DNA of 22,078 nt from Promethearchaeota archaeon (GTDB lineage Archaea > Asgardarchaeota > Odinarchaeia > Odinarchaeales > JBHLKK01), in the NCBI GenBank assembly GCA_048939465.1, contig JBHLPL010000023.1, positions 1 to 22,078 on the forward strand. Direction: 5' to 3'. Of this stretch, positions 1,934-3,049 are shown in pieces (position 1 is the stretch's first letter; every line of letters begins with the position of its first letter). The position numbers were made by a program, and so were the translations under genes. Under the pieces are notes generated by a model, which made no database searches, was not told the DNA's origin, and saw only the letters and a list, made by a program, of their open reading frames with translations.

Positions 1934-2027
1934 TTCAACCCCTCTTGGCTTTGGCTTCAGCATCCTTTCCGAAGGATCCCGACTTTGTACATATTGATTA
2001 GAAAAGGATTTGGTGGGGTCGGTGGGA

Positions 2028-2053
2028 TTTTCCCCAAGCTGATTTTCCTTGGC
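2028..2053 (-). other. tRNA-Trp intron 3 (T-loop, position 59/60, 26 nt)
   Basis: The T stem is the outer helix. Central helix TTCA/GGAA pairs 3 of 4, bulges are AA^G and AA^T, and the inner helix is CCAAG/CTTGG. Removal restores the T-loop TTCAAAT. Confidence 0.85.
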
Positions 2054-2066
2054 TTTGAACCCACAA

Positions 2067-2096
2067 TTCGTCTTAGCAGACGATCCGGCTGTTAAT
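2067..2096 (-). other. tRNA-Trp intron 2 (variable loop, position 46/47, 30 nt)
   Basis: Bulge GG^A, central helix CGTT/GACG, bulge AA^T, inner helix TTA/TAA then CAG/CTG. Removal restores the 5-nt variable loop TGGTT, with U48 matching A15. Confidence 0.8.
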
Positions 2097-2105
2097 CCAA
2101 CGGGT

Positions 2106-2171
2106 TTCTTCGGAGTGGACCGCTCCAGAGGCTCTTCATCCGTTTGTCAGCAGATCTATTGCCTGGGACAT
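2106..2171 (-). other. tRNA-Trp intron 1 (canonical position 37/38, 66 nt), with C/D-box-like elements
   Basis: Lies between G37 (2172) and A38 (2105). Central helix CTCC/GAAG pairs 3 of 4, so the motif is a relaxed BHB/BHL. Contains CTGA, ATGAAGA, TCTGGAGC (antisense to the anticodon loop) and CCGA. Confidence 0.85.
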
Positions 2172-2233
2172 CTGGAGCCCGTCGTCCTACCTGATTAGAC
2201 CACGACCCCTTCAAGAACCTGTAAAATCTTGAA

Positions 2234-2241: not shown

Positions 2242-2344
2242 TTGTATCGGTGGGTATGAACCTAAGATCGTTTCAGCGATCTAAAAGACTGCCCTTCGCT
2301 CAGAGGATTAACATGCGGACAGAGGAAATTGTATTTTAAAAGGA

Positions 2345-2496
2345 TGTGTGACACCGTTCCGTGTTCTAATGGGTACGGGTGTTTCCTCTCGCCTATGGCC
2401 GCCAGCGAACCAGCAGCATCTTGCTTTCCCACGGGCTCGCGCACCGTAGTACAGGTAAGATCGCTCGAGAGCTTAACTTTCACGCGATGTCACACA
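2345..2496 (-). repeat. Terminal inverted repeat forming the processing stem and BHB-like motif of the permuted 5S precursor
   Basis: TGTGTGACATCG (2496-2485) pairs with CGGTGTCACACA (2356-2345), 12 bp with one G-U. Then come the 3-nt bulge GAA (2359-2357), the 4-bp helix CGTG/CACG and the 3-nt AAA (2480-2478). The helix beyond AAA is imperfect (G.A mismatch, then T-A, T-G). Confidence 0.9.
2358..2478 (-). rRNA. rrf: 5S rRNA, circularly permuted gene (3' half 2478-2410, TTCG linker 2409-2406, 5' half 2405-2358)
   Basis: 2478-2410 reads AGTTAAGCTCTCGAGCGATCTTACCTGTACTACGGTGCGCGAGCCCGTGGGAAAGCAAGATGCTGCTGG, the 3' part of archaeal 5S. 2405-2358 reads CTGGCGGCCATAGGCGAGAGGAAACACCCGTACCCATTAGAACACGGA, the 5' part. 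Helices can form: I GCTGCTGG/CTGGCGGC, II CGAGAG/CTCTCG, IV CTACGG/CCGTGG capped by GCGA, V ATCTT/AAGAT, and III after ligation. Confidence 0.93.
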
Positions 2497-2519: not shown

Positions 2520-2529
2520 TATATAAAAA
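2520..2529 (-). promoter_or_regulatory. TATA box of the permuted 5S rRNA gene
   Basis: TTTTTATATA about 24 nt upstream of the start of the terminal stem (2496). A T4 tract (CCTTTT) follows the 3' arm of the stem. Confidence 0.7.
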
Positions 2530-2554
2530 TATTGCAAATCTTGCATTGATTCCT

Positions 2555-3049
2555 TCAGCTAATTAGACGCCCTTCAGAATCGATCTCGCCTTTCCTTATC
2601 CTCGAGGAGGAGATTGGCATCTTATCCTCTGCAAGAGCCAAAGGGATCAGAACAATTTTGATCGGGGGTATTTTCCTTTGAATTCTAATCTGATTGATCT
2701 CTTCTGCGCGGGCGTAGGTTTCTTTGGTGACCACTATTGCTTCAATTTCTTGACTAGATATTGCGGGTCCGTAAGGATCCTTTAGAGGGATTATCTTAAC
2801 CCTATCGGCGACTCCCTTTTCCTCCAAAAATCTTTCTATTTTAGCTTTTCTCATTTCGAATGGCAAGATTCTTTCTCTTTCAGGTTTTCCTTTCAGCATC
2901 TCTTCAGTTGTTACCCCCAGAATCACACTCTTACCTAATTTAAGCGCCTTCAAGAGCGCGAATTTATGTCCTGCATGAAAATGATCAAATGTCCCTGCAA
3001 AGCCTACGCAGCTGAATTTGCCCTTACTGCAATCTCCCACGAAGATCAC
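2555..3049 (-). CDS. coaD: Phosphopantetheine adenylyltransferase (archaeal CoaD, cytidylyltransferase fold)
   Basis: GTFDHFHAGH (HxGH), LGVT, DPYGP, IVVTKET and ISSSRIRKGEID motifs. GTG start is uncertain. Confidence 0.88.
   Translation of the reverse strand: MIFVGDCSKGKFSCVGFAGTFDHFHAGHKFALLKALKLGKSVILGVTTEEMLKGKPERERILPFEMRKAKIERFLEEKGVADRVKIIPLKDPYGPAISSQEIEAIVVTKETYARAEEINQIRIQRKIPPIKIVLIPLALAEDKMPISSSRIRKGEIDSEGRLIS

Follow-up and report, generated by a model that had tools for sequence, protein, structure and literature searches.

The window analysed here is the 22,078-nucleotide contig JBHLPL010000023.1 (assembly GCA_048939465.1, positions 1 to 22,078) of an Odin-related Asgard archaeon, whose genome assembly (152 contigs, 1.96 Mb) has a completeness of 91%. 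On its minus strand lies a circularly permuted gene for 5S ribosomal RNA (rRNA), in which the native ends of the molecule are fused by UUCG and the new ends lie in a splicing motif. An earlier note on this DNA had taken the capped helix I to suggest that the mature 5S rRNA is a covalently closed circle.

A circularly permuted 5S rRNA gene

The 3' part of the 5S rRNA precedes the 5' part, and the two are connected by the capped helix I, as given in the following features with the evidence for each in brackets.

2410–2478, minus strand: 3' part of the 5S rRNA (2478–2410), with GUUAAGC directly after A2478 and ending GCUGCUGG (sequence)
2410–2417, minus strand: 3' strand of helix I, GCUGCUGG (sequence, fold, covariation)
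2406–2409, minus strand: UUCG tetraloop linking the native 3' and 5' ends (sequence, fold, relatives)
2398–2405, minus strand: 5' strand of helix I, CUGGCGGC, followed by loop A, CAUAG (sequence, Rfam half match, covariation)
2358–2405, minus strand: 5' part of the 5S rRNA (2405–2358), running to GAACACG, of which CACG is 2363–2360 (sequence)

The 8-bp helix I closed by G(UUCG)C, which the earlier note had described, can be read directly on the minus strand from G2417 to G2410, U2409 to G2406 and C2405 to C2398. Positions 2417–2410 pair with 2405–2398 in eight contiguous pairs, five of them G-C and three G-U. For a 28-nt segment with the capped helix I, the hairpin was the minimum free energy (MFE) fold at −9.7 kcal/mol, and the fold of the predicted circle (see below) also contained it. 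Free 5' and 3' ends at helix I are absent at the gene level, where UUCG fuses the native ends. The statement that the linker holds no spacer and no second processing motif was likewise confirmed: the loop has 4 nt and lies inside a continuous helix, and neither a bulge-helix-bulge (BHB) motif nor a bulge was found within helix I at the locus or in 33 distinct relatives. Nor did the native ends show a linker that could be removed or a second processing signal, the mark of the pathway in which the circles of permuted tRNAs are reopened; the relatives have loops of 3–7 nt that are mostly UNCG.

At the gathering score of the Rfam model RF00001 (38 bits) no match was obtained in the window, because the gene halves are swapped. 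In E-value mode the same model gave two half matches of 23.2 and 20.0 bits, covering 2314–2406 and 2408–2499, with model position 1 placed at 2406 in one half and model position 120 at 2408 in the other. Since the half matches meet at 2406/2408, the native 5S ends abut without a spacer. These two abutting half matches were the only 5S-like locus in the window's genome, while 13 of 14 control genomes exceeded the cut-off.

The splicing motif and the predicted ring

At the new ends, leader and trailer of the transcript contain the two strands of a BHB motif, from which the ring was predicted.

2485–2496, minus strand: leader strand of the outer BHB stem h1, UGUGUGACAUCG, pairing with 2345–2356 in 12 contiguous pairs
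2345–2356, minus strand: trailer strand of the outer BHB stem h1, CGGUGUCACACA (pairing, covariation)
2481–2484, minus strand: leader strand CGUG of the central 4-bp BHB helix, pairing with CACG at 2360–2363
2478–2480, minus strand: 3-nt bulge AAA of the leader strand, with the predicted 5' cut at 2479/2478 and A2478 as the ring's first nucleotide
2357–2359, minus strand: 3-nt bulge GAA of the trailer strand, with the predicted 3' cut at 2358/2357 and A2358 as the ring's last nucleotide
2358–2478, minus strand: predicted excised and ligated 5S rRNA of 121 nt, in the order 3' part, UUCG cap, 5' part

By the established rule, the archaeal splicing endonuclease EndA cleaves each strand after the second of the three bulge bases. 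In the BHB of precursor tRNAs, the bulge of the 3' splice site adjoins the anticodon stem, and the 4-bp helix separates that of the 5' splice site from it; the strand order of the anticodon-intron pair is h-H-B on the 5' strand and H'-B-h on the 3' strand. A mirror-image BHB, with the bulges on the wrong side of the central helix, was considered for the locus and rejected, as the pre-tRNA geometry shows its topology to be canonical. The locus has a 4-bp helix and, on each strand, a 3-nt bulge that follows the helix strand on its 3' side (CGUG-AAA and CACG-GAA); a general definition of the BHB is given in the paper on Thermoproteus tenax (PMC4731332). Compared with a strict hBHBh' motif, the outer helix has 12 bp and the inner helix at most two A-U pairs after a G-A mismatch, as read from the sequence, so that the motif resembles the bulge-helix-loop (BHL) type. 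The CACG of the central helix (2360–2363) overlaps the 3' strand of helix III, and the precursor held in the BHB conformer was 2 kcal/mol above its MFE.

Applied to both bulges, the cleavage rule yields 2478–2358, which agrees with the 121-nt circle of the earlier note. The predicted cut-and-join restores the canonical CGGAAGUUAAGC, with the junction formed by CACGGA and AGUUAAGC. As the model length of RF00001 is 120, the cap adds no extra length to the ring. Its circular MFE fold was the standard 5S three-way junction, with the UUCG-capped helix I and helices II–V, and the linear 2478–2358 RNA folded into the same structure as the circle. The five-helix 5S fold is complete after rejoining, with loop A (CAUAG) and loops C and E conserved, and the rotated ring was colinear end to end with nine canonical Asgard 5S rRNAs, without an indel at the junction. 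Swapped halves, closed native ends, a BHB and an exact canonical junction, the marks of a permuted gene that gives rise to a circle, were all found at the gene level.

Two EndA paralogues, 33% identical, are encoded in the window's genome. The 204-aa paralogue (G000:C90; L105:1168-1782, plus strand) matched the C-terminal catalytic repeat of two-repeat enzymes and has kept the His motif; the 191-aa paralogue (G000:C139; L106:1474-2049, minus strand) matched the N-terminal structural repeat and has lost that His. The composition of the pair indicates a splicing endonuclease of the (alpha-beta)2 type. Such enzymes accept relaxed BHB/BHL motifs, a tolerance that counts here in view of the weak inner helix past the AAA bulge. 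Two genes for the ligase RtcB were also found in the genome, on contigs C31 and C78. The one at G000:C31:2961-5708 (minus strand; loci L102/L104) is a 973-aa open frame, in which the Pfam match is split (positions 1–57 and 45–426) by about 460 aa, possibly an intein.

Conservation across Asgard relatives

The locus was compared in a set of 41 related genomes, including the window's own. Canonical 5S was present in nine of them and the swapped order in at least 21 (window's genome counted). Four relatives assembled as single contigs (G003, G017, G027 and G029) contained permuted 5S loci only and no canonical copy, and genomes of the same order had a 5S locus identical to the Odinarchaeia records. 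A pattern scan of one genome per species found about 45 further permuted 5S loci; the true matches were all from Heimdall-, Odin-, Jord-, Baldr-, Njord- and Freyarchaeota, Asgardarchaeum and the like. Bacterial matches of the scan were without any 5S feature and were rejected.

Helix I was contiguous in all 33 distinct hairpins, with stems of 6–12 bp in which extensions keep pairing. Its loop was UNCG (UUCG, UACG or UGCG) in 20 of the 33, compared with 1/64 expected for a random tetraloop, and CUCG in two; the others had 3–7 nt. The second loop base was free in the Heimdall group (U, G or A), with U1, C3 and G4 fixed apart from one exception (UAUG), and Njord-type genes had a helix I longer by 3–4 bp before the loop. 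Covariation was assessed in an alignment of 15 related loci from at least six named Asgard groups. Helix I was paired in 97.5% of cells, with compensatory changes in five of its eight pairs, including the four next to the loop. The proximal ten pairs of the outer BHB stem were 100% paired, nine of them with compensatory changes. For the whole tested structure, the observed covariation was reached in 0 of 500 shuffles, and slid controls dropped to 28–46% paired. A hairpin so conserved, covarying and compact argues that the cap is a selected folded element and not a disposable linker.

The BHB was equally regular in the 15 loci, all of the simple type: stems of 9–15 bp, a central helix always of 4 bp and bulges always of 3 nt. 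In other lineages the central helix was CCGA/UCGG (one register over) or UCAG/CUGA. The stems of the window locus and the 14 other loci share no common sequence. At the trailer bulge the discarded third base varied (A, U or G) and the two retained bases were always GA or AA; in the Heimdall outer motif the discarded second leader bulge base was A, U, C or G. In all, the bulge positions to be discarded varied and those to be retained did not. The predicted rings had 121–129 nt, and the ligated sequence CGGAAG(U/C)(U/C)AAG was found in 15 of 15 loci, with no indel in comparison to the nine canonical Asgard 5S. No convincing flanking BHB was detected in the canonical, non-permuted Asgard 5S genes, and an ancestral circularisation at helix I is therefore not supported.

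Heimdall-type genes (L044:1250-1337 region, Heimdallarchaeota AB_125) and the loci of G017 (L023) and G027 (L028) contain a hairpin insert of 30–32 nt between the outer BHB and GAAAGUUAAG, and the ring defined by their outer BHB would have 152–154 nt. Within that ring, L044 and G017 have a further BHB, of the intron type, whose use would remove 32 or 30 nt and leave 121 or 123 nt with the canonical junction. This points to a BHB intron that once lay where the gene is permuted.

Metagenome contigs were scanned for the order expected after splicing, from the junction through the 3' half and the cap to the 5' half, which gave three matches, none derived from a transcript. Two were rejected as chance and the third (L108) as a differently permuted gene, not RNA. 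This gene (L108:5094-5310, minus strand; contig Ga0299912_10015276) is broken on the 5' strand of loop B and runs from helix III and the 3' half through helix I with a 7-nt loop to CAUAG and the 5' strand of helix II. From its CCGA/UCGG helix and the bulges AGA and AAA a ring of 121 nt is predicted, but the outer stem has only three contiguous pairs, and Rfam scored the gene at 39.5 bits, as a poor linear 5S.

The permuted gene would form a self-contained transcription unit at 2497–2338 (minus strand), bounded by two putative elements.

2520–2529, minus strand: TATA-like box TTTTTATATA, recognised by its sequence, probable promoter
2338–2341, minus strand: UUUU run 3 nt past the stem, likely archaeal terminator by its sequence and place

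The TATA-like box ends 23 nt before the flanking stem begins, a distance which predicts a transcription start at about 2497–2495. The spacing was identical in Odin and other relatives, which also have T-runs at the equivalent place after the stem. Canonical Asgard 5S genes have a TATA box equally far (~25 nt) from the mature 5' end and a T-run at the gene end. Directly downstream of the unit lies a tRNA-Trp-like gene (GGGGUCGUGGUCUAAUCAGG and GGGCUCCAGA; window 2011–2209, minus strand), and this neighbourhood is kept in Odin genomes and in G009. ARAGORN made no call in the window; the tRNA-Trp-like gene was presumably missed because of introns. Just upstream of the 5S promoter, a weak C/D-box-like match to SNORD44 (15.3 bits, E = 2.1) was found at window 2552–2610 (minus strand), overlapping the end of the open reading frame 2555–3049. 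The permuted signal recognition particle (SRP) RNA gene of T. tenax is likewise adjoined by a C/D small RNA gene (PMC4731332).

Form of the mature 5S rRNA

We favour the following pathway. The ends of the transcript would pair into the 12-bp stem, the GAA bulge, the CGUG/CACG helix and the AAA bulge; both bulges would be cut by the heteromeric tRNA-splicing endonuclease, and RtcB would join A2358 to A2478. The result would be a covalently closed circle of 121 nt that has the sequence and fold of a normal 5S. UUCG would serve as a permanent structural cap in place of the free ends of helix I, so that the natural termini would never be regenerated, and the ring, rather than a linear derivative, would most likely enter the 50S subunit. 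That the transcript is cut and ligated, and that the ring persists in ribosomes, is what we infer from gene sequences. With moderate confidence, the closed ring is regarded as the best-supported mature form of this 5S rRNA, because the cap is conserved without an opening signal, the cut-and-join motif covaries, the enzymes are encoded and functional rings have precedents. The circle proposed by the earlier note gains from the conserved cap, from a BHB that predicts a 121-nt ring, from the encoded enzymes and from two precedents; the cap by itself implies no circle, and the argument rests on the BHB on the opposite side of the RNA.

The closest precedent is the SRP RNA of T. tenax and T. uzoniensis, which has a permuted gene and is circular when mature (Plagens et al. 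2015, eLife, PMC4731332). In T. tenax the BHB formed by leader and trailer is cut by a two-subunit endonuclease, and ligated termini were seen by RNA-seq (PMC4731332). Both cases concern a universal structured RNA with swapped halves, a gene seemingly 'missing', its own TATA promoter (a probable one here), a short leader and a BHB between leader and trailer, and the native termini of the SRP RNA are never re-created. Here, in contrast, the RNA is a component of the ribosome, the junction lies in loop B and not at a helix tip, and the permuted gene is spread over many Asgard classes instead of two species. The second precedent is circular 23S rRNA, which is reported to be incorporated in mature archaeal ribosomes; according to the same study, circularisation affects 16S and 23S rRNA but not 5S rRNA (Genome Biol 2026, PMC12918454). 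Like circular 23S and the pre-16S/23S intermediates, the permuted 5S has a BHB in a processing stem at which EndA cleavage and ligation are predicted. The genes of circular 23S and 16S are, unlike the permuted 5S, not rearranged, and their junction is at the native ends.

Circularly permuted tRNA genes occur in Thermofilum pendens, among others. In those of Cyanidioschyzon merolae, the 3' half, a linker and the 5' half follow each other between BHB-type flanks, and the tRNA splicing machinery makes a circular RNA (Soma et al. 2007, cited in PMC4267664). The tRNA circle is an intermediate, from which RNase P and tRNase Z take out the linker to leave free ends, whereas the 5S linker is a 4-nt UNCG loop in a helix of normal length, without a removal signal. 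For 5S itself, the permuted gene of brown-algal mitochondria gives a linear final product without splicing or ligation (Valach et al. 2014, PMC4267664). It resembles the locus in having a closed hairpin in place of the open helix I and differs in its ends, which lie at the three-way junction, in being organellar and of separate origin, and in lacking a full swap of the halves. Engineered circularly permuted 5S (cp5S) of Escherichia coli, with native ends joined by a 4-nt connector, yielded active ribosomes, in which those ends lie at a great distance from 23S rRNA (Huang et al. 2020, PMC7283268). The connector has the same length as that of the Asgard gene, and the capped helix I of cp5S sits normally in the ribosome; unlike the Asgard 5S, cp5S is an artificial construct whose opening lies in loop C or D and which is built into the 23S rRNA, with no free ring. 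A literature search found no paper on permuted or obligatorily circular archaeal 5S.

A linear permuted 5S rRNA would arise if the RNA were cut at the BHB or trimmed and left unligated, or if the precursor were used with its flanking stem, and it would have a UUCG-capped helix I, with its free ends placed in loop B, which separates helix II from helix III. Such a product is unlikely, if well short of negligible: the cap and the gene order fit it equally well, the linear RNA adopts the same fold as the ring, and permuted RNAs are known as final products from brown-algal mitochondrial 5S (PMC4267664) and from the permuted 23S rRNA integrated in 50S particles of Thermococcales (PMC7758197). Simple trimming, however, would not need the precise BHB that is kept across lineages with unrelated stem sequences; the cut rule gives the exact canonical junction, and RtcB is encoded. 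Archaeal RNAs excised at a BHB are, moreover, circularised as a rule. In T. tenax, SRP protein binding was impaired without circularisation (PMC4731332), and loop B of an unprocessed precursor would contain a 12-bp stem as well as 7 additional nucleotides. It is improbable that the 121-nt circle is opened in or near the UUCG loop by some nuclease to give a conventional linear 5S. We know of no enzyme that recognises 5S as RNase P and tRNase Z recognise tRNA, the cap has no spacer, bulge or conserved recognition element, the compact UNCG loops are under selection with extensions that remain base-paired, and the ring is already of normal 5S length. Opening in the loop would leave helix I of normal length, and permuted tRNAs do take this route in the account of Soma et al. 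2007, as cited in PMC4267664. That the locus is a non-functional rearranged remnant, with a working gene in the unassembled 9% of the genome, can hardly be maintained. An assembly of 152 contigs that is 91% complete leaves room for it, but the same layout with promoter, terminator and compensatory changes recurs in at least 21 of the 41 related genomes, and closed single-contig genomes with the permuted gene have no canonical 5S.

Several observations weigh against the closed ring. Past the AAA bulge the inner helix is weak, with U-A, U-A at most, which makes the motif of BHL type and not a strict hBHBh', so that processing depends on an enzyme of relaxed specificity. Because the central helix and helix III compete with each other, the RNA has to switch its conformation. 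The conservation of UNCG could serve the folding of the precursor and not the mature RNA. Whole-5S circles seen in Halobacterium and Sulfolobus were minor and heterogeneous, and were read as linked to degradation (PMC12558985).

Taken as a permuted gene with a BHB and a functional circle, the system would be of a known kind, which a large part of the Asgard phylum would apply to an rRNA that is universal. Its generalisation, that most Asgard lineages (Odin, Heimdall, Jord, Baldr, Njord, Frey and others) have ribosomes with a circular 5S made from a permuted gene by the tRNA-splicing machinery, and that the permutation site may mark a former BHB intron in loop B, visible as the 30–32-nt insert of Heimdall-type genes, has in our judgement as much chance of being right as of being wrong. 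The permuted order would explain why annotation at the Rfam gathering threshold misses 5S at such loci, and a permuted 5S covariance model is needed for annotating Asgard genomes. 5S rRNA is universal, and every textbook ribosome treats it as a linear, autonomous molecule. If the closed ring is correct, rRNA would have a new mode of maturation, an obligatory 5S ring, among the archaea most closely related to eukaryotes, the large subunit would hold an rRNA without any ends, and the tRNA-splicing endonuclease and RtcB would be essential for ribosome biogenesis.
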